Shown here: positions 2,070 through 60,504 of the stretch, one piece after another | Layout of the letters: every line of letters begins with the position of its first letter | How positions within the stretch are numbered: the first letter of the stretch is position 1 | From: a virus | IMG/VR virus record: IMGVR_UViG_3300045988_149975 | Direction: 5' to 3' (one strand) | Length of the DNA stretch: 64,000 bases | Notes under the pieces: model-generated | Database searches by the model: none | What the model saw: the letters and a program-made list of their open reading frames with translations, nothing else | What the model was told of the DNA's origin: nothing | Translations under genes and position numbers: made by a program

Positions 2070-2477
2070 TTAATTCTCCTTATATTTCCTCAAAGTAATA
2101 GAAGTTTTACCATCTGAAAATACATATTCATCATAATTATTAGCAGTGTTCACAGAAATTAAAGGCAAATCAAAATCAATATCTCCCTCAATACAAACAT
2201 TATATTCTGCACCTAATATAAAGGGGTAAAGTGAATCAGCAGGTTCAATCCAATCTTCCTCAATATGCTTACAGTCTTGCCCATTCTCAAATTTAACTCT
2301 GTAAACAAATCTATCATCTTCATAGGCTGTAAATACTACTTCACCTATATCTCCCTTGTTTATTAAAGAATCTTTTACAAAGGTTTTACAAATTCTTACT
2401 TTATCACCATTGTCGAATTTACTTTCTTTAACGATTCTCATTCTTAAACAACTCCTTAAAAATATAATACAGTACAT
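2070..2477 (-). CDS. hypothetical protein
   Basis: 135-aa ORF. Confidence 0.5.
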   Translation of the reverse strand: MYCIIFLRSCLRMRIVKESKFDNGDKVRICKTFVKDSLINKGDIGEVVFTAYEDDRFVYRVKFENGQDCKHIEEDWIEPADSLYPFILGAEYNVCIEGDIDFDLPLISVNTANNYDEYVFSDGKTSITLRKYKEN

Positions 2478-4443
2478 CTACTACAATACTATTACCTGCC
2501 ATTTTATAAAGCTGTGTATTACTTATTCCTTTACATACTTCAATATCCCTATCCTCAAAGCCCATAAGCCTGAAGCACTCTTTAGGAGTAAGTTTACGGA
2601 TTCTATTCTCAATTTTGTAGAGTCCTGTTTTAGCACCTAATCCACCTGCTTCACCTTTAAGAGTAACAGATAAACCGTTTACATCATACACCACCCTTTT
2701 AGCCTGTGGCATACCGCTTGTAAGTTCTGTAAGCTGTGGAACTACAACACCTGTTGCAATTCTATCATCATTTTGTAAGAAATTTGCTTGTGAAGTTTTA
2801 TAATAATTAGCTTTAATAGTTCTACAAGTACCATCCTTTTCAGTACCATAGGGCGTAACAGATTTAAAATGTTTGATGTAATCTTTAACTTTATCATCTC
2901 GCATAAAGTATCTATCCTCTACCTCATTTTCAAGCACATCCTTTAGACTTTTAGTAAGTGGAAACGGCGCAGGAAAGTTAAAACCTTTATCAATATCTTT
3001 CCTAATAGATATTATAAATACTCTTTCTCTCCTTTGAGGTATTCCATAATCTGCGGCATTTAATACCTTCCAATAATTATTATACCCCATCTCACTTAAA
3101 CAGTCAAGTATATAATTAAATTCTTTTGTAAATTTTTTACCAGTGAGATTTTTAACATTCTCACATACTGCATATTTAGGTTTGACAGCATCGATAATCC
3201 TTAAAGCGTCAAACACTAATCCGCTACGAGTTTTTTCACCATTATATTCCAACCCCATTTTCTTACCACTTACAGAAATATCTTGACAATTATGCACTAT
3301 AATGTTATTGACAGTATATGAATTATCATTTTCAACTTCAAGATTGAATACCTCGATAGGCTTTTCAATCATTTCAATAGCTTTAATAGGTACTGCTATT
3401 TTATCTCCTATAACTAATTGATGCAATGCTCTATCAGAAAACTGCGCATTATAACAATCTTTAAAACTATCTTTTTGTCTATCTTTTCTAATACTTGTTG
3501 TAGGTACTACATTATAAAGTTTAATAACAATTCTACACAACTGTAAAAACATCTGCTCATTTATAGTGCTAAACATAAAAGTTGCTCTATCTTTTCTTCT
3601 ATGCCCATCACCACTCATATAACCATCGAAGAATTTAGATAACTGTTCTTTATTTAAAGACACAACCCAATCAGGAATTTTCTTAATACCTGCTCCACTA
3701 CCACAACTATGTATTACAGATTCTAATTTATCATCTATAATTCTGAAGTCAATACACGTTCTTTTACTATGTCCTTCATTATATCTGATATTAGTTAAAT
3801 GTTTTATAAATTCCTCTTTCTTACCTGAACCAATACAAAATATGGGACGTTTCTGATAAAGTTTTTCACAATAACCGTCTGCAAAATATCTACCAAAAAG
3901 CCATAGCCTATCATCATCTAAATCTGTATAGGCAGACTCTGTATTTATATTATAGGTAATGAAATCTGTAAGTTTTAGATCTTTAGCCTTAACCCAAACA
4001 AACTCTCCATCTCTATAAACATATAAAGGATGCTCATTAGTTAAATAAAGATTATAAGCCCCTACCCCTTTAATATGTCTAATACTATTAGAAATTCTTG
4101 ACATCGTTCTTAAAACTTTTTGATAATTATTTGTATGTGTAAGTACATAATCACCTACAATTATATCTTCAATATTTTTATAACCACACTGCACTTTAAT
4201 TTTTGTTCCAGCAGGAACACATGGAAATCCATAAGTTACTAAATCTACTCCAGGAAGTTCGCCTTCATTTACTTTAGTAATATCCCAAAGGTTTAAACTT
4301 TCAGGCACGTTATGGATTAAGGAATATGCTTTACTTGCATACTTATCTACTTCACAATAGTTGACAAGGGTATAATTAATTCCCAATCTTTCAAGGGCTT
4401 TTTCAAAAGCCCCTATACCTCTAAACAAACTTAATAATTTCAT
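2428..4443 (-). CDS. DNA (cytosine-5) methyltransferase interrupted by an intein
   Basis: C5-MTase motifs in order: I (FRGIGAF), IV GFP|C...HN|CQ (PCQ split by the intein), VI VCENVKN, VIII QRRERVFII, X GNSIVV. Without the 311-aa insert the exteins form a roughly 360-aa Dcm-type enzyme. Confidence 0.85.
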   Translation of the reverse strand: MKLLSLFRGIGAFEKALERLGINYTLVNYCEVDKYASKAYSLIHNVPESLNLWDITKVNEGELPGVDLVTYGFPCVPAGTKIKVQCGYKNIEDIIVGDYVLTHTNNYQKVLRTMSRISNSIRHIKGVGAYNLYLTNEHPLYVYRDGEFVWVKAKDLKLTDFITYNINTESAYTDLDDDRLWLFGRYFADGYCEKLYQKRPIFCIGSGKKEEFIKHLTNIRYNEGHSKRTCIDFRIIDDKLESVIHSCGSGAGIKKIPDWVVSLNKEQLSKFFDGYMSGDGHRRKDRATFMFSTINEQMFLQLCRIVIKLYNVVPTTSIRKDRQKDSFKDCYNAQFSDRALHQLVIGDKIAVPIKAIEMIEKPIEVFNLEVENDNSYTVNNIIVHNCQDISVSGKKMGLEYNGEKTRSGLVFDALRIIDAVKPKYAVCENVKNLTGKKFTKEFNYILDCLSEMGYNNYWKVLNAADYGIPQRRERVFIISIRKDIDKGFNFPAPFPLTKSLKDVLENEVEDRYFMRDDKVKDYIKHFKSVTPYGTEKDGTCRTIKANYYKTSQANFLQNDDRIATGVVVPQLTELTSGMPQAKRVVYDVNGLSVTLKGEAGGLGAKTGLYKIENRIRKLTPKECFRLMGFEDRDIEVCKGISNTQLYKMAGNSIVVDVLYYIFKELFKNENR
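3289..4221 (-). mobile_element. intein with LAGLIDADG homing-endonuclease domain inside the C5-MTase
   Basis: Starts with Cys immediately after GFP (residue 75) and ends VHN followed by Cys+1 (residues 384..386). Two LAGLIDADG-like motifs (LFGRYFADGY and FFDGYMSGDG). Splicing would restore GFPCQDIS. Confidence 0.75.
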
Positions 4444-6480: not shown

Positions 6481-6628
6481 ACAAGATTACCTCACCATTA
6501 ATAAAATCTAAATCATCAATGTATGTACAAAAATTTTCATATTTACTATCAATACTAATAAAACATTCTACATTCCCTTGCTTATCTCTTACTTCAATGA
6601 GTGCATCAATAAGTTCATTTAATTTCAT
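6458..6628 (-). CDS. hypothetical protein (start moved to the internal Met)
   Basis: The track ORF 6458..6667 probably starts at MKLNELIDAL (RBS AAAGGAGAGG upstream). That ATG overlaps the stop of the upstream MTase reading frame. Confidence 0.4.
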   Translation of the reverse strand: MKLNELIDALIEVRDKQGNVECFISIDSKYENFCTYIDDLDFINGEVILYGETNEL

Positions 6629-7326
6629 TAGAAATCCTCTCCTTTGCAATGTTGAAATAATTTTCATCTTTTTCTATTCCAATAAACTTACGATTATTCT
6701 TTAAAGCTGCTACACCAGTGCTACCACTACCCATACAATTATCCAATACTACATCACCTTCACTTGTATAAGTCTTAATAAAGTATTCAAGCAATGCAAC
6801 AGGTTTTTGTGTAGGATGTAATCTACATTTATCTTTATTAAAATCTAATACATCTACTGGATAGCGTTTTCCATCATTTACCGTTACTACTGATACTTGC
6901 TCTCCATAATTACTACTACCTCTACCACTTTTGCAGGTATAAGGTTTCCCTTCTCTAAATTGTGGATGGTACGGGGGGGGAGGAATAGAATACTAAAATA
7001 TTTTCATGGTTCTTTAAAGGCATTTTCTTTGCGTTTAAATGTCCTGTTCCCTGTGGTTTACGCCATATCCACTCATACTTGAGATTTTTGATATTGCTTA
7101 CACCTAATACCTTATCAAAAGGAGTCTGTGCAAAGAGTAGGATAGCACCATTATCTTTTATAATACGATTATATTCTTTCCACATTAAGTCCAAATCTAT
7201 AACACTATCCCATTTATTCCTTGTAGTACCAAAAGGCGGATCACAAAGAATTAAATTAACACACTTATCAGGTATATCTTTCATTACCTCTAAACAATCA
7301 CCTAAATACAATTTTAGTTTATCCAT
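6615..7326 (-). pseudogene. beta-class N6-adenine/N4-cytosine DNA methyltransferase, frameshifted in a G8 homopolymer
   Basis: N-terminal frame (6955..7326) carries motif IV DPPF (ILCDPPFGTT). After the G8 tract the -1 frame encodes LHPTQKPVALLEYFIKTYTSEGDVVLDNCMGSGSTGVAALKNNRKFIGIEKDENYFNIAKERI (HPTQKP and motif I FxGxG) and ends at 6615. Removing one G, or adding two, restores a single ORF of about 236 aa. Confidence 0.7.
6973..6980. repeat. G8 homopolymer (C8 on the coding strand) at the methyltransferase frameshift point
   Basis: Direct read: acGGGGGGGGagg in roughly 30 % GC DNA. Confidence 0.9.
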
Positions 7327-7886
7327 CTAACTACAGTTTCTCCTTTAAATCCCTTTTCCCAAATAAACCAAGCATAAGCAATCGCATTGGATGGGTATTT
7401 ATCAAAATCACCATTCTTTGCGCAAGAAAGCCTACCCCTTGCAACATATACATACTTTGGTGGATTTTCTTTATAAAATTCTCCACGCTCTTTGCCTTCT
7501 AAAAATTGAAGGCGTAAAAAGAACGCTACAGAGTTACCTTTAGGAATAATATCTAATGCGTGTTTCACAAATGGAAGTGCTTGTTTGTAAGGAGGATTAG
7601 AAACAATATCTCCGCCCCATTCAGTCACATCAAAGAAATTTTGTACCTTACCATATCCTCTATCATAAAGGTCAATACTTTCTACAATATAGTTAGCTTT
7701 TTCTAACTCTTTACTGATATGCCCCTCACCACAACAACACTCTAAAATTTTCGGAGCAAATTTGTACTCTGCAAGTAGTAATTGTACTGCTTTAGGCTGT
7801 GTAGCATAGTAATCCTCTAATTGCCTTTCTTCCCTTGAATGATTACTTGCACCAAGAGTTACATATACATTATGCTTTCCGTTCAT
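7314..7886 (-). CDS. putative N6-adenine DNA methyltransferase (motif I followed by NPPY)
   Basis: ILECCCGEGHIS (motif I-like) followed by DIVSNPPYK (motif IV NPPY). 190 aa, intact. Confidence 0.6.
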   Translation of the reverse strand: MNGKHNVYVTLGASNHSREERQLEDYYATQPKAVQLLLAEYKFAPKILECCCGEGHISKELEKANYIVESIDLYDRGYGKVQNFFDVTEWGGDIVSNPPYKQALPFVKHALDIIPKGNSVAFFLRLQFLEGKERGEFYKENPPKYVYVARGRLSCAKNGDFDKYPSNAIAYAWFIWEKGFKGETVVRWIN

Positions 7887-8214
7887 ACTTAACCTCCAAT
7901 TTTACTTTAGTGCTAAATTCAGAGTCTTTCAATGCTTCAATTCTTTCTTTCAAATACTTACAGCAATTTTCCTCTGTCATTGTTTTAATAAATTCGCAGT
8001 TCTGTAACAAAACTTTCATTAAATAATCTTCAGTAGGGCAAAAATCGTACATTTTATCACTATGCGCTTTAAGCACATACCTATCGAATGTTACTGTTAA
8101 ATCAGTAATATAGCTACTTCCATAATCACAAGTGGGGCAGCCTTTAAAGGCTTCTTTATCATAATCAATGTTTACAATACCACCGTCTACTAATTTCATT
8201 AAATAATCTTTCAT
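7870..8214 (-). CDS. hypothetical protein
   Basis: 114-aa ORF with several Cys (CPTCDYG, CPTEDY). Confidence 0.45.
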   Translation of the reverse strand: MKDYLMKLVDGGIVNIDYDKEAFKGCPTCDYGSSYITDLTVTFDRYVLKAHSDKMYDFCPTEDYLMKVLLQNCEFIKTMTEENCCKYLKERIEALKDSEFSTKVKLEVKYERKA

Positions 8215-8721
8215 TTTTTAATCTCCTCAAATATAATTTGTTTTGGTAAAATATTATGACATACATATACGCTTGAAAACGGTGGATTAAGAGATGGTTT
8301 TTGTTCTCTATAATCTTTGAAGTATGCAACTCTCTTATTAAAGTACATAATTTCAAAGTCATTATCTTTGAACATATTAAATCTCTTTTGGCTTTCAAAT
8401 AATCCTACAACACCTACAAGCATTGCAAAGGGTTTACCAATCTCAAACAGCCTTTGTAATACCTCGCCCTTTAAAGAATAGGGAGGATTACTTATAATAT
8501 AATCACAATCAGGAATAGGCTCTTTAAAGAAATCTTTACCCTCATTTATATGTGAGTGTATAACCTCATTTCCCCCCCCCTAAAATCTTTACAAAATTCG
8601 ACTCTTCAGTATCAAAGGGACACCAAATTGTAGAACCAGGTTTTAGATATTTAATTAAAGGTTCAATAGCATATACAGGAGTGTAAAATTCATCATTACC
8701 GCTGCTTGCCACTTTATCCAT
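8211..8721 (-). pseudogene. phage Dam-like N6-adenine DNA methyltransferase, frameshifted in a G9 homopolymer
   Basis: N-terminal frame MDKVASSGNDEFYTPVYAIEPLIKYLKPGSTIWCPFDTEESNFVKILGGGK stops right after the tract. In the -1 frame it continues NEVIHSHINEGKDFFKEPIPDCDYIISNPPYSLKGEVLQRLFEIGKPFAMLVGV... (equal to track ORF 8211..8423). The DEFYTP N-terminus plus NPPY is typical of small phage Dam-family MTases. Removing one G gives an ORF of about 169 aa. Confidence 0.7.
8572..8580. repeat. C9 homopolymer (G9 on the coding strand) at the second methyltransferase frameshift
   Basis: Direct read: cattTCCCCCCCCCtaaaa. Confidence 0.9.
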
Positions 8722-8723
8722 TT

Positions 8724-9056
8724 TCATTCCTTATCATACCTTTCTACGTTAGGTTTATCAAAAGTTTCCCACTTATAAGCACGCCAACCAGTTATAATAG
8801 AACCGTTACTCGCTACTACATAACAAAAATCACATTGACGCATTGGTATTCTTACACACACTTTTATAATCTTATCACCACTCATTGCCATTTCAAAAAC
8901 CATATTTTTTGAAAGTTTATCCTTTTGTACAAGCGGTAATCTTTTTTGTCTTGCCCTTACCATAAAATGATGAGTAAAATTTACCCTTTCAAAGCCATCC
9001 CAAAACTTCTGCATATCTACTTTAGGCATAAATATATTTTTGTGATACAGTTTCAT
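8724..9056 (-). CDS. hypothetical protein (start moved to ATG)
   Basis: The track ORF uses a TTG start 5 codons upstream. The ATG (MKLYHKNIF...) lies 8 nt after GGAGG and just downstream of a consensus promoter. Confidence 0.45.
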   Translation of the reverse strand: MKLYHKNIFMPKVDMQKFWDGFERVNFTHHFMVRARQKRLPLVQKDKLSKNMVFEMAMSGDKIIKVCVRIPMRQCDFCYVVASNGSIITGWRAYKWETFDKPNVERYDKE

Positions 9057-9087
9057 AATAACAACCTCCAATCTTTTCTATGGTTTT

Positions 9088-9116
9088 ATTATACACTACT
9101 ATTATCACTATGTCAA
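9088..9116 (-). promoter_or_regulatory. consensus sigma-70 promoter
   Basis: Minus strand TTGACA (9111..9116), 17-nt spacer, TATAAT (9088..9093), immediately after the terminator hairpin. Confidence 0.5.
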
Positions 9117-9890: not shown

Positions 9891-10964
9891 CTATTCATTG
9901 TTTTTAAGTAAGAAATCAGGATTAATGACTTTAAAGGATATATCCTCTCTATAATTTCTTACAACAATACCTTCCCTATCTATATCATATAAAAGAGATT
10001 TACCTCTTGCTTTTTCTACAATATCATGAATAGTTGGGGGAAGTATAAAATCATTTGTAAGTACAGGAACATTGTTAAGCCCTAATTTTTTGCAGATAAA
10101 ACTTGCCTTATCTTGTTCAATGCGTAAATCATCTATAATTACATTGTAAACAAAGAAGTCATATCCTGAAACATGATATTTATTTCCTTGTATAGATTTA
10201 CCTATAATCTCACCTTGTATTACTACTTTATTAGCATTATATGTTTTAGCTATATCTTTTAAACAATCTTTTAAACCAAAACGCCTTGCCACTTCCCAAT
10301 ATGGGGAATCATCTTCTTTTCTTAACCATACATTTCTACTGCATACACCAAATTTTCCTTCATTTAAAAAATATGTAGCACTACATCCGTCTAATTTTTC
10401 AGTCATATAGAACTTAACATTGTCCTTATGCCATTTTTCATATTGATTAGGTAAATTTTGTACCCTTTCTTCATCTGTCTTATTACATATATTTACAGGA
10501 AATGAAGCATTTGTAGTTTTAAATTTCGCTAAAAGTTTTCTAAACCACCTGTATTTCATTAAAAACCGTAAAAATCTTGGGTAACTTACACTTTGTTTAA
10601 TAAGTTTTGTTTCAGCTTCAGCCTGCGGGTCATATTTAGTTATACCAAGTTCTTTTGTAACATCATCACCGATTTCATGATAACTGCCCCTTAAATAACT
10701 AATAGGTAATACCAAACCTTGTGAAATTTGCTTCCTTAATTTAATAGTTCTTACCCTGTACTTTCTATCCTTCATAAAAGCAAATTCAGGACGAGGAGGC
10801 AAAATGGAATCTACTTCTACAAAAATAACTTTATCCCCTACATTAAAATTATCAGATTTAGATACAACACATTCCCATCCCCTTACAGTAGCCTTGAGTA
10901 TTCTATCCGCATTGGGAATAGGTTCTAAACTTTCAATTCTTGCTATAGTTGCTAATTTACGCAT
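9891..10964 (-). CDS. ATP-dependent RNA ligase with N-terminal OB-fold, tRNA-binding-like domain (Rnl5/DraRnl-like)
   Basis: Nucleotidyltransferase motif I KLDG (MTEKLDGCSATYF). The N-terminal 60 aa (LATIARIESLEPIPNADRILKATV...VGDKVIFVEVDSILPP) resemble tRNA-binding OB folds. Confidence 0.55.
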   Translation of the reverse strand: MRKLATIARIESLEPIPNADRILKATVRGWECVVSKSDNFNVGDKVIFVEVDSILPPRPEFAFMKDRKYRVRTIKLRKQISQGLVLPISYLRGSYHEIGDDVTKELGITKYDPQAEAETKLIKQSVSYPRFLRFLMKYRWFRKLLAKFKTTNASFPVNICNKTDEERVQNLPNQYEKWHKDNVKFYMTEKLDGCSATYFLNEGKFGVCSRNVWLRKEDDSPYWEVARRFGLKDCLKDIAKTYNANKVVIQGEIIGKSIQGNKYHVSGYDFFVYNVIIDDLRIEQDKASFICKKLGLNNVPVLTNDFILPPTIHDIVEKARGKSLLYDIDREGIVVRNYREDISFKVINPDFLLKNNE

Positions 10965-10974
10965 TTATTATACC

Positions 10975-12840
10975 TCACTTTACTACCTCTGCTTCAATAG
11001 GTTTTTCTTCTGTTAAAAGTGCTTCAAGTATTCCTCCGCTGCGTGGATTACTACCCTTTACAACGGTACTTTCTATAGTTCCACCTTTTACTACCGTTTT
11101 ACTTACTGTTACAGGATTACCATTTACCTCATTCTGTAATTTATGTAGTTTTTCTAAATAACCCCATGCATCTTTCATTAAATCAGAAGTTCTTTCTGTA
11201 GCTATACCACCTTGTTGAGTTTCTTGTAAATATGATTTCTGTACTCTTTCCAAAGCTAAATCGGCTAAAGAAGTCATACCATCTATTACATCATCTTGAT
11301 TACGAGTATTAAACTTACGGAAAAGATTATCGTAAGCACAGATATATCCTGCTTGATATTCAGGACAATTAGTTGCTAATACGCACCTGTCACATGATAA
11401 TCTTGCTATTGCTTTAGTAGAAATTTTCTTTTGTTTTCTTAATTTTTTAATACCTGCCTTAATATTACCGTCTTTATCATATATAGGTGTAATATCATTT
11501 CTAATAAGTTCTTTTTCTACCTCATCCTTATCATAACCTGCTGTAAGCAGCGCAGGAAGAAGTTTTCCACATTCCTCTCTTGATAACTCCACCTCTGTAT
11601 ACTCTTTATCTGTAATATACTGCTGACGCTCTAATGCTTTACGTTCATTATCTAAAGGCTCATGTAAATTCTGTAAAGCCCTCTCCTGTCCATTTAAAGC
11701 GTTTTTAAAAGCCTCTTTTAAGAAGGCTATACATTTATCCTTTGTATTATATTTAACACCCTCTGCGCCAAAATATGCGCAAATTTCAACTAAATCTTCA
11801 AGCTGATAAGCATTTAAGTCTTTATTATTAATAAAGTTATAAAAATCTAATAATAAAGTAGTGCCAAAATCTTTAGGTACTTGTGTATCTATACCTGCTT
11901 CATCTAACTTATCTTCCCAATCGTTCATATCAGTTGAAAACCACTCATAAGAAGGTAACTTATACATCTTTCTATCACTCCAATACTTTTTAGGGAACAT
12001 AACCTGTTTTACATACTCTTCCATTTTCTTAAAAGCAATAGCTGATGCTTTCATAAGTTCAGTTGACGCTTCTATATCCAATAATTTAGGATTAAGTTTA
12101 AGTGCTTCTAACTTTCCACGATATTCCCCATCTTTCCATTGCTCTTTTTTCAACCTTTTAAGTTTACCACCTTCAAAATAGTTTACTTCCCCGAACTGTG
12201 AACCCGTAAGCCAACTTGTCATATCAGCAGAGAAAAAAGGATGTTTGAGTAATAATTTATTACTTCCTACACCAAAACCATGTATTTTAGCTTTATTTTT
12301 GACTGCTATCTCAAAAAGTTTATCAATATACTCAATAGGATTATCTAAACTTGCGTTCATTTCAACAGCAGAAAAACCAACATAAGGATGTTTTCTACAA
12401 AGTTTATCAAAATCCTCAAAGCTATCATCTAAATGATATACATATATTACAGGTATACCCTCTTCTTCTAAAGGCATAAAATATTCTTTACGCCATCTTT
12501 CTACAACATCTTTGCCAACAAGACTTGATAAGTCAAGTTCTACACAAGCAAAGATTAAATCTCTATGCTTTTTAACAAAGCCTATGTATTTCTTTAGATA
12601 ATCTTCCCACCACTCTACGCTTTTATCACGATATTGAGCGTCATTTATGAAAGTATGTGCGCCACTGTCAATAAGAAATTTCATTCCTTTTTTCTTGTAT
12701 AACCGTTCTTCTATCTCCTCTTTACCTCTACGCCTTATATAGTAATAAGACAATAATAAATTTTTAGTGACTGCACTTGCTATATCATAAATTTGTTTAG
12801 GCTCAACACCTGATAAAAATAATGTAAATTCGCTTTTCAT
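10975..12840 (-). CDS. dpdA: tRNA-guanine-transglycosylase-superfamily protein, candidate 7-deazaguanine DNA transglycosylase (DpdA-like)
   Basis: FLIDSGAHTF resembles the TGT DSGGFQ substrate motif. The C-terminal region has a Cys cluster (CDRCVLATNCPEYQAGYIC) like the TGT zinc site. It sits in a block with QueC and QueE. 621 aa. Confidence 0.45.
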   Translation of the reverse strand: MKSEFTLFLSGVEPKQIYDIASAVTKNLLLSYYYIRRRGKEEIEERLYKKKGMKFLIDSGAHTFINDAQYRDKSVEWWEDYLKKYIGFVKKHRDLIFACVELDLSSLVGKDVVERWRKEYFMPLEEEGIPVIYVYHLDDSFEDFDKLCRKHPYVGFSAVEMNASLDNPIEYIDKLFEIAVKNKAKIHGFGVGSNKLLLKHPFFSADMTSWLTGSQFGEVNYFEGGKLKRLKKEQWKDGEYRGKLEALKLNPKLLDIEASTELMKASAIAFKKMEEYVKQVMFPKKYWSDRKMYKLPSYEWFSTDMNDWEDKLDEAGIDTQVPKDFGTTLLLDFYNFINNKDLNAYQLEDLVEICAYFGAEGVKYNTKDKCIAFLKEAFKNALNGQERALQNLHEPLDNERKALERQQYITDKEYTEVELSREECGKLLPALLTAGYDKDEVEKELIRNDITPIYDKDGNIKAGIKKLRKQKKISTKAIARLSCDRCVLATNCPEYQAGYICAYDNLFRKFNTRNQDDVIDGMTSLADLALERVQKSYLQETQQGGIATERTSDLMKDAWGYLEKLHKLQNEVNGNPVTVSKTVVKGGTIESTVVKGSNPRSGGILEALLTEEKPIEAEVVK

Positions 12841-17197: not shown

Positions 17198-17794
17198 TTA
17201 TAATAAAAATTCTTCTGCCATTGGCAACTTCTCTACAAAATCCATGAATACTTTATTCCACGCTTTAAGTCTATGGTTTTTACGCTGCGATACCATAGTT
17301 TTAATTTGCTGATAATTTGTAGAAATACGAGCAGTAAGCTGATAACCCATTGGTACATTAGCAAGTACAGTATCAAAATCACATTCACCTTTATTGTATC
17401 TATCTACATATTCTTCAGCAATAGCGATAACTCTTTCATCTGTACCTTCTACACACATCTTTGCAATATCTGCTTTAAGTAACTTGTGCATTTTACTTGT
17501 GCTACTTACAATCTGCTGAAAATGATACCTTTGCCATTCTGCCCAAAAATATTGTGGCATTTCTAAATCAAACTGAACTATAATACCAGTTAAAAAATTA
17601 TTATGACCGCTTCCGATAGGTGCTTTGGCTAATGCTTCTGCTCTAATAATATGTTTATTTTCATCATCCAATAATGCAATTTTCATTGTCTGTTTATCAA
17701 ATTCTTTAGCATTAGGAGTTTTCAATAACATAGGATAACCCGAAGCCAAAATACTTTCCTCTAAACCATACACATTTACATTACTTATCTCCAT
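17198..17794 (-). CDS. hypothetical protein
   Basis: 198-aa ORF. No confident motif; weak, unconvincing resemblance to the QueF/ThyX signature (STSKMHKLL, WQRYHF). Confidence 0.4.
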   Translation of the reverse strand: MEISNVNVYGLEESILASGYPMLLKTPNAKEFDKQTMKIALLDDENKHIIRAEALAKAPIGSGHNNFLTGIIVQFDLEMPQYFWAEWQRYHFQQIVSSTSKMHKLLKADIAKMCVEGTDERVIAIAEEYVDRYNKGECDFDTVLANVPMGYQLTARISTNYQQIKTMVSQRKNHRLKAWNKVFMDFVEKLPMAEEFLL

Positions 17795-18008
17795 TTTTTA
17801 CCTCCAAATACTGTCCTGTCTTAATAATATAACCTTTTAACCCACATTTTGAACATACTATATCTTTCAACCATAATTTTGTAGGTGCTACAATAATGCC
17901 ACGATATAAACATTTTAAACAGATGCCCTCAAATACTTGATGAGGAATCTTCTGTTCCCTTAATTCATCCATATCAATTACCATCTTGTTCTTCCTCAAA
18001 TAATTCAT
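17781..18008 (-). CDS. small zinc-ribbon protein
   Basis: 75 aa with CLKC...CSKC. Confidence 0.4.
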   Translation of the reverse strand: MNYLRKNKMVIDMDELREQKIPHQVFEGICLKCLYRGIIVAPTKLWLKDIVCSKCGLKGYIIKTGQYLEVKNGDK

Positions 18009-37261: not shown

Positions 37262-38551
37262 TTATGCCCCTAATTTTTCCACAATCTCATCTTTTGTAAA
37301 ACCAAGGTTTTTATAAAGACTCCGTGGATTTTCTACATATTCGTATTTTAAAATGGTAGTCTTACCATTTTCTTCCATTGTTTCATATTTAACTGTATCT
37401 GTATTCTTGCCTGCTTTTTCTACCTCACCTGCATAAATCCAAATATAATCATCAAATAATAGATTACCCCATAAAGGCTTCCAAACTTCCTCGTTGAAAT
37501 TTTCTGCCATATAATAGTAATCCTCTTTAGAACTTAATACTTTTGGTATACCTCTCATTAATAACTCAATCCTTTCTTTAACAGAATCTAATTTTATACT
37601 TTTACGAAAATTATAGGTATTTGCCCACTTCATCCAACCTTCTATACTGGCTACCATACCTCTTGCATAGTCCAAATCTAAATCAGCAGTCTTTAATAGA
37701 CTATCCAATTTTCTAAACCTGCGTTTTATCCTTTTTGCTGTACTCTTTCTTAATAAAACACAGTTGTTAGGAAATGTCCTATAACCAAGAAAGTCTACAC
37801 CTTGCGTTATAGGAAATACATTACTTTTACTTAATAACAGGTTTAACTTATCATAAGCAAATACCTTCGCTTTTTCAGCTACCTCATGTAACTCCTTCTT
37901 ATCATTACCGAAAATTATAAAATCATCACAATACCTTATATATGCACTACATTTTAAATCATACTTTATATAAGTGTCTAATTCATTCATGTATAGATTA
38001 CCAAACCACTGTGAAAGATAATTTCCAATAGGTACGCCCGCCTTTCTATGACCAAATTCCTCTACATATCTTTCAAGTTTTCCACGCATTATATCAGCAT
38101 CTTTACGCCCTTCAAAATTCTTCAAATAACCTATATTAGCTTCTCTTGTTGCAAGGCTATCTATTATTATATCAAGAATACTTAATAAATCTTTATCTTT
38201 AATCTTTTTACGCAATATTATTTTCAATATTTCATGGTCAATATTTACATAAAATTGTGAAATATCAAGTTTAGCACAATACTTATACTTTCTTACATAT
38301 TCAGAGCATTTTATCATTCCCTTATGCTGCCCCTTACCTTTACGACAAGCATAACTATCATATATAAATAAACTATCCCAAATAGGCTCTAACACATTCA
38401 TTATAGCATGATGTACTATTCTATCAGGATAATATGGAAGTACATAAATTAAACGCAATTTAGGCTCATACATTGAATAAATCCTATAAACGGAGTTCTT
38501 ATAATTTCCATCCATTAAATCTTTTTGTAATGATAATAGGTTAGCTTCCAA
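37262..38551 (-). CDS. reverse transcriptase of a diversity-generating retroelement
   Basis: RT motifs in order: RIYSMYEPKLRLIYVLPYYPDRIVHHAIMNVLEP (1/2), LDISQFYVNIDH (A), KAGVPIGNYLSQWFGNLYMNELD (B'), YIRYCDDFIIFG (YxDD). 429 aa. Lies 3' of a TR/VR pair. Confidence 0.8.
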   Translation of the reverse strand: MEANLLSLQKDLMDGNYKNSVYRIYSMYEPKLRLIYVLPYYPDRIVHHAIMNVLEPIWDSLFIYDSYACRKGKGQHKGMIKCSEYVRKYKYCAKLDISQFYVNIDHEILKIILRKKIKDKDLLSILDIIIDSLATREANIGYLKNFEGRKDADIMRGKLERYVEEFGHRKAGVPIGNYLSQWFGNLYMNELDTYIKYDLKCSAYIRYCDDFIIFGNDKKELHEVAEKAKVFAYDKLNLLLSKSNVFPITQGVDFLGYRTFPNNCVLLRKSTAKRIKRRFRKLDSLLKTADLDLDYARGMVASIEGWMKWANTYNFRKSIKLDSVKERIELLMRGIPKVLSSKEDYYYMAENFNEEVWKPLWGNLLFDDYIWIYAGEVEKAGKNTDTVKYETMEENGKTTILKYEYVENPRSLYKNLGFTKDEIVEKLGA

Positions 38552-38604
38552 ATTTTCTCTTACTTTAATAACCTCTGATAAATTTCCTTTACCTTTTCCT
38601 GCTT

Positions 38605-38910
38605 TTAATTCAGCAATTTTAAGATTTTCAATATCAATAATTCTATTCCAAAGATTTCCATATCTTCGTATTTGAAAAACACCCTCTCTATTAAAAAGTT
38701 TAACAAATTGGCACTCTTTATAAAGAGTGCCAAAATGCTATTTAGGTATTTAGGTAAATTGATTTTCGCCTTAACTACTAACCCCTTTACCATCCTGTAA
38801 TGTGTTTCTGCTTTCGCAGAGGATAGAGATTCAGCCGAAGGATTAGCTTTATACCTATTGTATGATACCTTCGTATCACTACAGCTACGCTCGCCGTTGT
38901 TAGAGTTCAC
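38605..38910 (-). CDS. questionable ORF in the DGR spacer
   Basis: 101-aa ORF overlapping the TR 3' end and a 12-bp-stem hairpin (38707..38732). This region is normally a structured non-coding RNA in DGRs. Confidence 0.2.
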   Translation of the reverse strand: MNSNNGERSCSDTKVSYNRYKANPSAESLSSAKAETHYRMVKGLVVKAKINLPKYLNSILALFIKSANLLNFLIERVFFKYEDMEIFGIELLILKILKLLN

Positions 38911-38992
38911 ATTCGCTGAAGCATTATTGACATTAACTGAACGAGAACTGCAACTCGAACTGTTATTCCAGTTACTGCCGAGTTTCGCCTTT
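38877..38992 (-). repeat. DGR template repeat (TR)
   Basis: 116 bp aligning with 39151..39266. About 32 mismatches, every one at a plus-strand T of the TR, which is an A on the transcribed minus strand, changed to C, A or G in the VR. Confidence 0.8.
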
Positions 38993-39124
38993 ATAACCTC
39001 TACCCTTTTAGTTGCAACTATTTATATATATAAATTGGGGGTACGAGATGGTTGTCTACATTACCTCTCCAAGTTTATATCAACTTAAACACCACATTAA
39101 CTTGAATTAATGGGCTACGCCAAC

Positions 39125-40186
39125 TCAATTCCCAAGTTTATGGAGCGGCTCACCACAGCCACGCCCGCCGCTGAAAGAGTCCACAAGCGCCGAAGCACCA
39201 TTGACATCAACCGAACGAGAACCGCAACCCGAACCGCCACCCCAGAGACCGCCGAGCCTCGCCCTGTACAAAGTACCATAGCTTCTACCATAAGACTGGT
39301 CATCTACACCACTATTATATACAGAATCATTCCAACCACTTGAACCGTTTACACCAACATCACTTGCCCATTGCCATAAGAAACCACAAGCATCTTCAAG
39401 CCCATAATTACTTATCATTCTTCTGCCCGCTGTATCAACGTGTCCACCAGTTGTATTGGCATCTGTACTACCTTGTATATTAGTACCTTCATTACTTCCT
39501 TTTGCCGCCACCTGAAACTCATATCTCCACGGCAATCTTTTCTTTATATCAGCAAGTCTTTCTACAAACTGTTCACCATGAAATTTCTTTGTAGAAGCAC
39601 CATCTGCTGTTGTTCCACCATTTACACTCACAAGTTTACTTCCATTCCACGAGTTTAAGTAAATGTCCATCCATATATCTACTTCAGGAATATAAACCAT
39701 TCCTTCAGGTGAACATTTTGGGCGATGAATTAAATCCCATACTGATTGTGGTAATATATCACCTGCTACATAACCACTTAATGTATGCCCGCTTATCGTA
39801 CCCACATTTGTACATAAACAATGGAAACCACCTATTTTTCTACTATTATCTGCATTATAACCATTAGGTACAGTAGAATTTAAAGATAATACAAAATCTA
39901 ATCCATTATTTTCTACTGCATACACATAAACATCTTTACCGTTTCTATTTGCCAAACTTAAAGACAATGTTTTATCCATATCAGTAGAGTATACATTATC
40001 ATTTATTCTTAAAACCATCCCCGCAGGTATTGTTACAGTAGTCTTATTTGTAGTCATTAAACTTTTTCTATTAAAATAAGTATCAATATACTTTGCCAAA
40101 ATTTCTTCACTAAAATTTTCACCATCTATTAAAGAGTTTAAATATGCTCTAATTGTTTCTACCCTTAAATTATTTAATTTATCCAT
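39125..40186 (-). CDS. DGR target (variable) protein, probable receptor-binding tail protein with a C-type-lectin/FGE-like C-terminus
   Basis: 353-aa ORF in the tail-fibre region. The C-terminal Gly/Cys-rich segment (GGLWGGGSGCGSRSVDVNG...GGRGCGEPLHKLGN) carries the VR. Confidence 0.65.
   Translation of the reverse strand: MDKLNNLRVETIRAYLNSLIDGENFSEEILAKYIDTYFNRKSLMTTNKTTVTIPAGMVLRINDNVYSTDMDKTLSLSLANRNGKDVYVYAVENNGLDFVLSLNSTVPNGYNADNSRKIGGFHCLCTNVGTISGHTLSGYVAGDILPQSVWDLIHRPKCSPEGMVYIPEVDIWMDIYLNSWNGSKLVSVNGGTTADGASTKKFHGEQFVERLADIKKRLPWRYEFQVAAKGSNEGTNIQGSTDANTTGGHVDTAGRRMISNYGLEDACGFLWQWASDVGVNGSSGWNDSVYNSGVDDQSYGRSYGTLYRARLGGLWGGGSGCGSRSVDVNGASALVDSFSGGRGCGEPLHKLGN
39151..39266 (-). repeat. 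DGR variable repeat (VR) at the 3' end of the target gene
   Basis: See TR. Lies inside the last 50 codons of ORF 39125..40186, ending about 25 nt before its stop. Confidence 0.8.
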
Positions 40187-41460: not shown

Positions 41461-41529
41461 TGGACAATCTCCAAAGGTACTAATGGTTGGGCGAGGGAGA
41501 GTAGCACAGGATTCACAATTCAATGGGGG
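41461..41529 (+). repeat. inverted copy of the tail-fibre junction (encodes WTISKGTNGWARESSTGFTIQWG)
   Basis: 31 bp (41462..41492) identical to the reverse complement of 42572..42602 in gene 42322..43755. The next 37 bp encode the same peptide with different codons (version 1: GGATTCACAATTCAATGGGGG). Confidence 0.7.
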
Positions 41530-42101: not shown

Positions 42102-42329
42102 ACTGGTTTTACTATACAATGGGGTTCAACTGGTACTTTAAGCGGCACTGCAACAATTTCTTTTCCTCGCACATTTTCTACTGTTTATCAAGTTATACCT
42201 GTCGGAAATGTAGAAGAAACAAATGAAAACTGGGGTTTCCCATTAAATGAACGTCCTACAACAAAGAATTTTAAAGCTGCACATTGGTATAGTGGTCAGT
42301 GGAGATACATTGCAGTAGGAATTAGCTAA
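42102..42329 (+). other. silent tail-fibre C-terminal cassette C (no start codon, preceded by an in-frame stop)
   Basis: Encodes TGFTIQWGSTGTLSGTATISFPRTFSTVYQVIPVGNVEETNENWGFPLNERPTTKNFKAAHWYSGQWRYIAVGIS*. The junction uses DNA version 2 (GGTTTTACTATACAATGGGG, 42105..42124). Its stop lies in the palindrome GGAATTAGCTAATTCC shared with gene A. Confidence 0.65.
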
Positions 42330-43755
42330 TTCCAATAGCATACCATAATAAATATCCTCCTGTAGTATACATTTGACCCCAAAGCCAATTAAAATTTGTT
42401 GTAGAAAAAGATTTTATACGGGAAGTATATTTTTCGTCATTAGTATTTAAACCTGTTTGTGTTAAATATACTCCATATAAAGTTGTAAACTTTCTGGGAA
42501 AAGTTGTAGTACCGGCTACTGCTTTGCCTGTAGTTCCCCATTGTATAGTAAAACCAGTAGATGATTCACGTGCCCAACCATTAGTACCTTTGGAGATTGT
42601 CCATCCATTATTAGTAATACTACCACTTCCGCCGCCGATTCCTGCACCATCAGCAGGGTCAGGTGAAGGCTGTGTACTTCCTGTTGTACCTGCTACTTTA
42701 CATACCAAAAAACAACCTGCATATTGCTTACCTACAAGTTTACGCACTGTATCTCTTGTAACAGTTTCATTAGGCTGCCAATATCCAGTATCTACATCTG
42801 TTAAAACTCTTTTCCATACATAATTAGTATCTTCACTTGCTGTATCAATAGAAAATTGCAATACATAATTTACTGCATACCCATTTCCACTCTCTGTTGT
42901 AATCTCATAAAAAACATGATTAGTATGCGCTCTTACTACTGTCAAATTACCAGTTTGAGAAGGATAATTATATGTATTACCTTCCCCACCAATTCCCACT
43001 ATGAGCATTGAATTTGCAGGTAAAGCATTACCTATTGCATAAGGTGAATTATCTAATACTCCCCCGCTTAACCCTATTTGACTTAATTGACTATAAGTCT
43101 TAATATTTGTTAAATCATTAAGCGATTTTTTATTTACCACATCATAATCATTTACAGGGCTTTTATCTGTCTGTAAACTTTTAAATAATGTAGGGATTAC
43201 ATTCATATCACTACCTAAAGTTACTAAATTCGTAACAGATGTATTTACCACAGGGGCAATCCACTCTTCTGTTGTATAACCACTTACCCATAAAGTATCT
43301 GCATTACCAGTTGTTAGTTTTAAGCCCGCATATTTTATATTATTATATGTAAAAGTACAAGGCTCTGCTTTGGCATCATCACTATTTGTAGTATTAAAAT
43401 TTACATTACATTCATTAGAATTGTGTACTTTTTGTAAATTAATGTCACAATTTACCGCTGCTGTACTACCATTTTTAGTAGACATTACTACCTTCAATGA
43501 GCAAGCAGAGAATTTTGCAATATCTATATTATCTAATACTGCTAAAGGCAATACCTGTGTAGTACCTGTTCCTAAAGTTGTTTCATGAATTAAGAATTTA
43601 GCATTAGTTCCTTTAAACTGTACAGGCATTACCTGCCAACGAGAAGCATCATCTACATATTCTTTTAAAGAATTAAAATTCTCATTTAATAAAGGGGCAA
43701 GTTCTGTATCTACATATTCTTCCCCTGTAAAAATGTGTAAATCTCCTAAAGCCAT
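42322..43755 (-). CDS. tail fibre / receptor-binding protein with an exchangeable C-terminal domain (expressed copy, cassette A)
   Basis: 477 aa. C-terminus ...WTISKGTNGWARESSTGFTIQWG-TTGKAVAGTTTFPRKFTT...GGYLLWYAIGIS*. The junction peptide and 31 bp of DNA recur in inverted orientation at 41461..41529 and 42102..42124. Confidence 0.7.
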   Translation of the reverse strand: MALGDLHIFTGEEYVDTELAPLLNENFNSLKEYVDDASRWQVMPVQFKGTNAKFLIHETTLGTGTTQVLPLAVLDNIDIAKFSACSLKVVMSTKNGSTAAVNCDINLQKVHNSNECNVNFNTTNSDDAKAEPCTFTYNNIKYAGLKLTTGNADTLWVSGYTTEEWIAPVVNTSVTNLVTLGSDMNVIPTLFKSLQTDKSPVNDYDVVNKKSLNDLTNIKTYSQLSQIGLSGGVLDNSPYAIGNALPANSMLIVGIGGEGNTYNYPSQTGNLTVVRAHTNHVFYEITTESGNGYAVNYVLQFSIDTASEDTNYVWKRVLTDVDTGYWQPNETVTRDTVRKLVGKQYAGCFLVCKVAGTTGSTQPSPDPADGAGIGGGSGSITNNGWTISKGTNGWARESSTGFTIQWGTTGKAVAGTTTFPRKFTTLYGVYLTQTGLNTNDEKYTSRIKSFSTTNFNWLWGQMYTTGGYLLWYAIGIS

Positions 43756-56802: not shown

Positions 56803-57062
56803 TTATTTTCCTTTTATCATCTTACCTGACCATAATTTAAAAAGTTCAGGTGTCATCTTTGGTAAATCGGAAACATCCTTATTAGGTTTTTTAGATGGAT
56901 TTTCTACACTCAAATGGTAGTCCAATAATGCGAAAATCTTTGCAGGAGAACTACTCCAAAATTCAATATCTGACATTTTAAGCACCCTCTTTGCAAAATA
57001 ATAAAATGCTACCCAATCCCACTCACCATCATCATTGGAAAGAGTTTTCTTTAGTTTTTTCC
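56803..57062 (-). CDS. -1 frameshift extension of the tail assembly chaperone (gpGT-like)
   Basis: Slippery heptamer A_AAA_AAC (plus 57054..57060) at the end of the G ORF. The -1 frame stays open through track ORF 56803..56985. Confidence 0.5.
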
Positions 57063-59804: not shown

Positions 59805-60504
59805 CTCTACTGTAAAAAACTATTACAATATAATAGCTTGTATCAGCTTCTAAATCTGTTAAACGGTATTTCAAACGCTTAATATCATAAAAATCAAATT
59901 TTGTTATATCTAAACCATCCCGCAACTTTGTTTCGGCGTATTCATCATAAATAGGTTCTTTACTATACATTAAAGTGTACTTATAAAAGTTACCCTTCGA
60001 CATATCATATCTATTCCATTCTAACTCGAAAGAATAAACATTTGTACTATTTATTTTGAATTTAATTGTTTGTTCTTGGGATAATTTATAGTTCCGTAAA
60101 GAACCATCTCTTGCCCTCAATATAATATCTTTTACTTCAACAGGTGAATTGGAGATTGCCTCATCTAATTCCTCTTTAATTTTATCGGCTAAAGAGGTAT
60201 AATGATAAACCCTATCACCTTTTTTAAATGTCACCTGTTCAGTGCTTGCATCATATTCAGGTGCTACAGCAAGTGCTAATCTTAAATAAATTGTATGTAA
60301 ACACTTTAAAATTACAATGTTTATTTCCTCTGATGTCAACTCTTCCGCATTATCTTTACCTATGCTTACCATTGACATTTTAATTATGGTAGGAATACTC
60401 TTTTCAACACTTGCAAAAGCGGGGTCATTTTCAATAGAAGGTGTAGATAACATTAAGCTATCTATCAAATATTGAGTAATTAACTCTAAATTTGAATCCG
60501 CCAT
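59752..60504 (-). CDS. structural protein with C-terminal FN3-like domain
   Basis: 250 aa. C-terminal segment ...YKYTLMYSKEP...TSYYIVIVFYSRDGSFTASEITGKTLPYE. Confidence 0.4.
   Translation of the reverse strand: MADSNLELITQYLIDSLMLSTPSIENDPAFASVEKSIPTIIKMSMVSIGKDNAEELTSEEINIVILKCLHTIYLRLALAVAPEYDASTEQVTFKKGDRVYHYTSLADKIKEELDEAISNSPVEVKDIILRARDGSLRNYKLSQEQTIKFKINSTNVYSFELEWNRYDMSKGNFYKYTLMYSKEPIYDEYAETKLRDGLDITKFDFYDIKRLKYRLTDLEADTSYYIVIVFYSRDGSFTASEITGKTLPYE

Follow-up and report, generated by a model that had tools for sequence, protein, structure and literature searches.

Probable ON/OFF switching of a small DNA methyltransferase gene by a poly-G tract in an uncultivated gut phage

Phase variation of DNA methyltransferases by sequence repeats is well established in bacteria (PMC5909438, PMC4889913, PMC13076061), examples being the Type III mod genes of Haemophilus, Neisseria, and Moraxella (the “phasevarions”) and the poly-G-carrying Type IIG gene cj0031 of Campylobacter jejuni (PMC5909438, PMC4889913). 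Here we analyze a phage locus that resembles them: gene B, a small predicted DNA methyltransferase gene interrupted at a run of nine G residues in the IMG/VR virus record IMGVR_UViG_3300045988_149975. The whole stretch of DNA that was analyzed (the window) has 64,000 nucleotides and includes, in the same gene cluster, a second methyltransferase gene interrupted at a run of C residues (gene A) and a third, intact one (methyltransferase C). What the locus has in common with the bacterial systems is a simple repeat inside an open reading frame (ORF), where slippage would shift the frame and give stochastic and reversible ON/OFF expression, together with a large number of isolates in the OFF state whose ORF is nevertheless conserved. 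The bacterial genes differ in being chromosomal, usually part of Type I, III, or IIG restriction-modification systems, and in their described role, which is the regulation of host genes. Here, small orphan methyltransferases are found several in a row in a phage genome, each with its own tract, and their target is likely the phage's own DNA.

Related observations exist for phages. A poly-G tract occurs in bpm, a methylase gene of Bordetella phage BPP-1 (Liu et al. 2004, J Bacteriol 186:1503, cited in bioRxiv 10.1101/2025.10.21.683753); according to the passage of the preprint that cites it, the tract was not studied further. In the 42.5 kb BPP-1 genome (NC_005357) the sole G/C run of at least 7 bases lies in bpm, as a coding-strand G8 just upstream of VVLDPFAGSGTT. 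The two phages thus share a DNA methyltransferase gene with a single long G run, and both carry a diversity-generating retroelement. However, bpm is a single gene and codes for a beta-class N6_N4 enzyme, like gene A and unlike gene B, and BPP-1 is a temperate podovirus of a proteobacterium with a GC content of 65%, unlike the AT-rich phage investigated here. Hypermutable poly-G tracts are also reported in the receptor-binding genes of Campylobacter Fletchervirus phages (Sorensen et al. 2021, Cell Rep 35:109214). These tracts of G7 to G11 likewise make ON/OFF subpopulations for bet-hedging, but host-recognition proteins are switched rather than DNA modification. In coliphages T2 and T4, contingency loci were described in which homopolymer slippage causes reversible frameshifts that aid escape from host defence, for instance in the glucosylation gene agt (Gomez, Barrick and Waters, bioRxiv 10.1101/2025.10.21.683753). 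The homopolymers in question are merely 6 bases or longer, shorter than those reported here, and are spread across all gene classes, whereas in the present case long G/C runs are concentrated in modification genes of an AT-rich genome that otherwise avoids such runs. The only word beginning with “methyl” in the text of that preprint is “methylase”, in the citation of the BPP-1 work. A methyltransferase gene with a repeat tract is, as such, of a kind already known from bacteria and from phage BPP-1.

Gene B probably represents a simple-sequence contingency locus by which an orphan methyltransferase of the phage is turned on and off, and the window has its OFF state. All long ORFs of the window, including those discussed below, are encoded by the minus strand. 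The ATG initiation codon of gene B at position 8727 shares four nucleotides (ATGA) with the stop codon of the upstream ORF, and a second possible start is found at 8721. The 5′ segment of the gene (8566..8727, minus strand) has 49 codons (MKMDK...FVKIL) followed by three Gly codons, one Lys codon, and a premature TGA at 8566..8568. Read in the coding direction the sequence is MKMDKVASSGNDEFYTP...NFVKIL, then the homopolymer GGGGGGGGG (8580..8572; C9 in the plus strand at 8572..8580), AAA (8569..8571), and TGA. An initial annotation of this DNA had the N-terminal 49 codons ending at this G9, which the sequence bears out. The allele of the window (nine G followed by AAA, or G9A3) codes for a 53-aa product and is therefore designated OFF. 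Beyond the tract the +1 frame is free of stop codons from codon AAT at 8570 down to TGA at 8211..8213, so that a 3′ segment (NEVIHSH...NPPY...EEIKK; 8211..8571, minus strand) continues the protein and ends with a four-nucleotide overlap with the start of the next gene. The motif DEFYTP (8677..8694) is encoded upstream of the tract and the motif NPPY (8478..8489) downstream. The initial annotation was right that the continuing frame stays open through NPPY to the end of the gene, but the shift required is +1 (one base skipped) and not −1, and the ORF 8211..8423 listed for this region represents just the end of this frame, beginning at an ATG. Removal of one G (G8) or addition of two (G11) in silico gives an uninterrupted protein of 171 or 172 aa, respectively. 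Removal of exactly one base also mends gene A (237 aa), so that the one-base repair noted initially holds for both broken methyltransferase genes (171 aa for gene B). In the repaired protein the tract corresponds to a Gly-Gly-Gly loop that joins a helix to the following strand of a Rossmann fold, a position at which homologues show unrelated residues. Synthesis of a split enzyme from the two gene B fragments was considered and rejected since the ATG-started C-terminal ORF begins past NPPY and lacks the catalytic motif. A G-quadruplex or another signal acting at the DNA level was rejected as well: a lone G run cannot fold intramolecularly, and tracts are also found as C runs on the coding strand.

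Tract length was compared between the window and independent assemblies that were retrieved through the state-neutral neighbours of gene B (methyltransferase C and a 114-aa ORF), with further alleles found by look-up of the ON and OFF products. Four OFF alleles carry AAA after the G run: G7A3 in 6 samples, G9A3 in 5 samples besides the window (one of them 100% identical to the window across 5573 nt), and G10A3 and G12A3 in 2 samples each. The ON allele G9A2 was found in at least 9 samples. As the in-frame alleles have AA rather than AAA after G9, the G/A boundary belongs to the gene B switch. Alleles of sister lineages were G7-AATAGG and G9-AGAATARG, both OFF, and G10-AGAATAGG, which is ON. 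Exact look-up of gene B OFF fragments retrieved 24, 14, 6, and 2 contigs. For gene A the alleles C7, C8, C9, C10, C11, and C13 were observed, of which C10 and C13 are in frame, and all four possible ON/OFF combinations of genes A and B were found. The comparison with related phage genomes that had been suggested as a check therefore shows tracts of different length and a frame that toggles at both methyltransferase genes.

The immediate surroundings of the gene B tract do not follow its variation. One and the same 351-nt haplotype downstream of the tract carries G7A3, G9A3, and G10A3, while another identical 351-nt haplotype is found with both G9A2 (ON) and G7A3 (OFF). Identical flanks with different tracts imply that the tract changes much faster than the sequence around it and that ON and OFF states interconvert on the same background. 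Relative to genomes 98–99% identical to the window, indels are confined to the tracts of genes A and B. In a lineage whose gene B protein is 77% identical, the tract is found at the same codon position (CGT-G9-TAT, in frame) although the flanking residues differ; the neighbouring D12-class methyltransferase gene of that lineage also carries a tract, G7 or G8 in length, and occurs in ON and OFF versions. The variety of lengths (G7A3, G9A3, G10A3, G12A3, and G9A2 at gene B, C7 to C13 at gene A), several of them on identical flanks, supports homopolymer phase variation by tract-length hypermutability, one of the two explanations put forward in the initial annotation.

The two tracts stand out in the window, whose G+C content is 32.7%. 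They are its only G/C runs of 6 bases or longer; a search for other genes with G runs of at least 7 thus found none with a G/C run even of 6. Chance expectation was calculated analytically with a first-order Markov model of the window, which predicts 0.07 plus-strand C runs of 9 or more, 0.014 G runs of 8 or more, and about 6.6 G/C runs of 6 or more, compared to the two observed. In the long ORFs of the window GGG accounts for 9.8% of Gly codons and CCC for 9.2% of Pro codons. The deficit relative to the approximately 6.6 runs expected indicates that the genome avoids short G/C runs and yet retains two long ones, both in methyltransferase genes.

Three other explanations for the broken gene were weighed. 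A sequencing or assembly artefact, in which a homopolymer miscall has added a base to a tract that actually keeps the frame, would be in line with the repair of both genes by removal of a single base and with the error-prone character of long homopolymers on several platforms. Nonetheless, the alleles G9A3 and C8 recur in independent assemblies, including the one identical to the window across 5573 nt, and the OFF fragment is present on 24 contigs. Tract length varies by as much as 5 bases in other samples, the in-frame alleles found in nature (G9A2 and C10/C13) are not the G8 and C7 that correction of a miscall would yield, and only the G/C tracts hold indels relative to close relatives. A repair scan of all A/T runs of the window identified no clearly broken gene, its candidates being mostly gene junctions and the slip site of a tail chaperone gene (two, at 17794..17799 and 59814..59819, were not resolved). 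Recurrence of exact alleles, indels restricted to the tracts, and the lack of a clear break at A/T runs rule out systematic homopolymer miscalling, the other initial explanation, and make an artefact highly improbable. A misreading caused by 7-deazaguanine modification was likewise rejected: the phage has a DpdA-like gene, yet the same tracts are found in prophages of sequenced isolates. Diversification by the retroelement of the phage was rejected because this mechanism targets adenines in a defined variable repeat located elsewhere. It is also unlikely, if less so than an artefact, that gene B is a decaying pseudogene, the AAA-type allele being dead and its tract drifting while the phage sheds a dispensable methyltransferase. 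All of the AAA-type alleles (16) and ON alleles that were examined are out of frame and G9A2, respectively, OFF copies are the majority in nature, and gene A is lost or damaged in relatives, as this explanation would have it. However, every OFF copy retains an open frame downstream of the tract, and repair gives a full-length protein. Among three OFF alleles of diverged lineages, the sequence downstream of the tract has a ratio of non-synonymous to synonymous substitution rates (dN/dS) of 0.05, with 30 synonymous and 10 non-synonymous changes; among OFF alleles the pooled ratio is 0.09 and among ON alleles 0.07, and the value for gene A is 0.03. Such strong purifying selection on an out-of-frame segment, at the level seen in ON alleles, indicates that gene B is not behaving as a pseudogene. 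Identical downstream haplotypes shared by ON and OFF alleles and the conserved tract position across diverged lineages also speak against decay.

Purifying selection out of frame and the scarcity of in-frame AAA-type alleles would both be explained by programmed recoding, where the full-length enzyme is made by +1 ribosomal frameshifting at GGGGGGGGG-AAA-UGA-G or by slippage of RNA polymerase on the G run. The context is reminiscent of prfB (release factor 2), with a Shine-Dalgarno-like G-rich element upstream of a slippery Lys codon, an in-frame UGA, and a required shift of +1; the shifted product would read ...GGGK-EVIHSH.... G runs can make RNA polymerase slip, but the documented cases of efficient transcriptional slippage mostly involve A/T runs. 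Unlike in prfB, the configuration is not conserved among alleles and lineages, in which all three frames occur and many homologues are in frame, and the likeness goes no further than resemblance. OFF alleles are found in both wrong frames at comparable frequency (G7/G10 and G9/G12), sister lineages have other sequence contexts, in-frame gene B alleles exist and are common, and the same pattern is seen at tracts in many unrelated genes and positions. With both wrong frames represented and contexts that differ, no frameshift-competent configuration is conserved, and recoding appears rather improbable, somewhat more so than decay of the gene. Several observations nevertheless weigh against a reversible switch. 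All of the tract variation seen is between assemblies, and recombination among co-circulating phages could place different tract alleles on identical flanks. About three quarters of natural gene B copies are OFF. The in-frame lengths G8A3 or G11A3 were found in none of 16 AAA-type alleles, a sample biased by the retrieval of half of them through OFF fragments; for the 8 unbiased alleles the chance of zero in-frame lengths is approximately 0.04. This scarcity may reflect sampling bias, counter-selection of the ON state in that background, or may be a sign of recoding. Gapped pattern scans for the tract of the window lineage found nothing in IMG/VR and in the JGI metagenomes, and a looser pattern yielded only five sister-lineage loci, too few for an unbiased census of allele frequencies. 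Finally, loss or damage of gene A in some relatives indicates that the methyltransferases are dispensable.

A switch operated by slippage at the gene B tract would work as follows. Polymerase slippage during replication would alter the length of the G run far more often than ordinary substitutions occur, and each change would place the catalytic two-thirds of the protein, including NPPY, in or out of frame. Frame-keeping lengths would allow synthesis of the enzyme while the other lengths would stop translation at about 51–60 residues. Gene A, with a C tract of its own, would switch independently of gene B, and progeny phages would then differ in the sites that are methylated. With two independent switches, a phage population would mix up to four methylation types; we infer that this switching takes place within single populations. 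The most plausible benefit would be bet-hedging, as a methyl mark that blocks cognate restriction enzymes would also be targeted by modification-dependent (Type IV-like) nucleases; the mark may bring other costs too. It can be speculated that the premature stop in gene B might also reduce translation of the genes behind it, as the genes overlap.

The repaired gene B protein matches phrog_799 (PHROG 799, DNA methyltransferase) with an E value of 7.7e-33 over residues 3–169 and passes the Pfam model EcoRI_methylase (PF13651; 30.8 bits for a cut-off of 26.4). It was initially labelled “phage Dam-like”. The resemblance is loose: the Pfam Dam model (PF05869) stays below threshold (14.3 bits for a cut-off of 28.1), and it is EcoRI_methylase and phrog_799 that are matched instead. 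A search of NCBIfam, including phage Dam TIGR01712, assigned no family, and a sequence search of the PDB returned chance matches only, without a solved structure or a characterized close relative. Homologues number 4342, the best 120 of which have mostly 168–178 aa. In an alignment of 25 homologues, NPPY is invariant together with approximately 70 further positions. The AlphaFold model of the repaired protein (pLDDT 76.7) has a Rossmann-like order of strands and helices, and its best fold matches in the PDB are the m6A tRNA methyltransferase TrmM and HsdM subunits, which are Type I N6-adenine methyltransferases, with modest TM scores of 0.42–0.56. Gene B is thus a small predicted N6-adenine orphan methyltransferase of the NPPY type, belonging to the EcoRI-methylase/PHROG 799 family, and by its family and motif the enzyme would methylate DNA.

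Gene B is followed on the minus strand by the 114-aa ORF (7870..8214), which matches phrog_20043 of unknown function and overlaps both gene B and methyltransferase C. Methyltransferase C (7314..7886, minus strand) has 190 aa, matches phrog_799, and carries an NPPY motif. In this phage the gene is unbroken and free of tracts, but its homologues in other phages do bear tracts. Gene A starts at 7326. Its 5′ segment (6955..7326, minus strand), with the motif DPPF at 7231..7242, ends with ...SSPPVPSTI past a tract of eight C in the coding strand (6973..6980, minus strand; G8 in the plus strand). The 3′ segment in the +1 frame (HPQF...HPTQKP...DNCMGSGST...; 6615..6972, minus strand) terminates at 6615..6617. 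When one base is removed from the C8 run, the 237-aa product is recognized by the Pfam family N6_N4_Mtase, and the enzyme is a beta-class methyltransferase. Overlaps among gene B, the 114-aa ORF, methyltransferase C, and gene A are of 4–17 nt. In one relative (L002; IMGVR_UViG_3300045988_142217) an in-frame deletion of 108 nt takes out the SAM-binding motif I (VLDNCMGSGST) of gene A, and in another (L095; SRR32147859) gene A is absent.

The carrier is an uncultivated gut phage of approximately 98 kb coding for a tape-measure protein, J-like tail proteins, a family A DNA polymerase, and a ribonucleotide reductase. No match to the region 6800..9100 was found by megablast in 50,697 GenBank phage records, and the nearest isolate by helicase sequence is Bacillus phage BCD7 (42%). 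The phage also encodes a DpdA-like transglycosylase, a diversity-generating retroelement, and at least four DNA methyltransferases. A methyltransferase of 671 aa is encoded at 2428..4443, and genes for phage DNA modification total at least five. A 621-aa queuine tRNA-ribosyltransferase-like (DpdA-type) protein encoded at 10975..12840 suggests, by similarity, 7-deazaguanine modification of the phage DNA. An RNA ligase gene (9891..10964) codes for 357 aa here and for 720 aa with Intein_splicing and LAGLIDADG domains in other samples of this phage (L082, L083, L084), which reveals a presence/absence polymorphism of an intein. The retroelement (37262..40186) has a reverse transcriptase gene at 37262..38551 (phrog_1423, E 9e-104), a template repeat at 38876..38989, and a variable repeat at 39150..39263, 77% identical to the template and located in the 3′ end of a 353-aa ORF (39125..40186). 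A perfect 32-nt inverted repeat (41461..41492 and 42572..42603), in the region initially called cassette D, joins the 3′ part of a 477-aa tail-fibre-like gene (42322..43755, minus strand) to a cassette in the plus strand. This cassette has the same TISKGTNGWARESSTGFTIQWG segment and another C-terminus (...WIAVGIS compared to ...WYAIGIS), and judging by this arrangement the region looks like an invertible tail-fibre cassette system. Programmed frameshifting in tail assembly chaperone genes usually occurs just upstream of the tape-measure gene, and an A6 slippery run at 57055..57060 (minus strand) joins ORFs of 128 and 83 codons at this very location. ORF junctions at short runs resembling it are found at 59814..59819 and 17794..17799.

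Tracts are frequent around the same genes in related phages. The 80 IMG/VR loci centred on methyltransferase C homologues span 425 kb and contain 74 G/C runs at least 7 bases long, compared to a single one in 90 kb around the DNA polymerase gene of 4 relatives, used as control (a G7 at L103 3112..3118). Virtual repair revealed ON and OFF versions at the same sites of related phages, for example G7 (ON) and G8 (OFF) in the gene of a 295-aa PAPS-reductase-like protein and likewise in that of a 257-aa N6_N4 methyltransferase. Pfam assigned five of 8 tract-bearing ORFs of these loci to DNA modification (N6_N4, D12-class, PAPS-reductase-like); the remaining three are a methyltransferase C homologue without Pfam match, an ADP-ribosylglycohydrolase, and a terminase small subunit.

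The closest bacterial copies of gene B are found in prophages of gut Clostridia (Flintibacter, Dysosmobacter, Hominicoprocola, Lachnospiraceae). Across 422 kb, prophages with a gene B homologue contain 49 G/C runs at least 7 bases long, and as many as seven of them lie within 6.5 kb. The prophage DNA-modification modules L107, L111, L117, L125, and L126, from cultured gut Clostridia, each have six or seven G/C runs of 7–10 bases per 6.5 kb, and strains differ by ON and OFF lengths at the same sites. The 6 tract-bearing ORFs of Flintibacter muris DSM 110149 (L107) comprise Dam (PF05869), N6_N4, C5 DNA_methylase, PAPS_reduct, the gene B homologue, and one ORF that has no Pfam match and, by its DIPY motif, may code for a D12-class methyltransferase. 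The tract-bearing ORFs examined in Dysosmobacter segnis BX15 (L117) are the gene B homologue and segments of a C5 methylase. The tract of the prophage gene B homologues has another position, in a Pro-Pro-Pro stretch near residue 30. In Dysosmobacter segnis it is a C9 that keeps the frame, and Hominicoprocola fusiformis has a frame-breaking C8. This difference in location implies that tracts arose at several positions in the same protein family. We tentatively propose, as a possibility for which the case is about balanced but not yet favourable, that arrays of DNA-modification genes, as many as six or seven together, exist in phages and prophages of gut Clostridia. Each gene would have its own poly-G/C switch, and a single phage genotype would keep generating a combinatorial library of epigenetic types. 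The predicted gene types in these arrays are N6-adenine, C5-cytosine, and Dam-type methyltransferases and PAPS-reductase-like enzymes. No description of switchable modification-gene arrays in gut phages or prophages was found in the full-text literature covered, which excludes subscription journals. This wider pattern, with many independently switchable DNA-modification genes per phage, may be the part that is new.

Orphan methyltransferases of phages are usually seen as fixed anti-restriction equipment; if they can be switched, carrying the methyl mark would be a gamble and no longer a fixed trait. When methyltransferase genes appear frameshifted in assemblies of phages and prophages, they should not be “corrected” or dismissed as pseudogenes. 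Switches of this kind could confound the methylation-based linking of phages to hosts in metagenomes, and tract lengths in public read sets would be a ready record of selection on gut phage epigenotypes. If the arrays proposed above are real, they would correspond, in viruses, to the phasevarion of bacteria. They could serve as a hedge against both restriction-modification and modification-dependent defences, and they could also reprogramme methylation of the host in lysogens.

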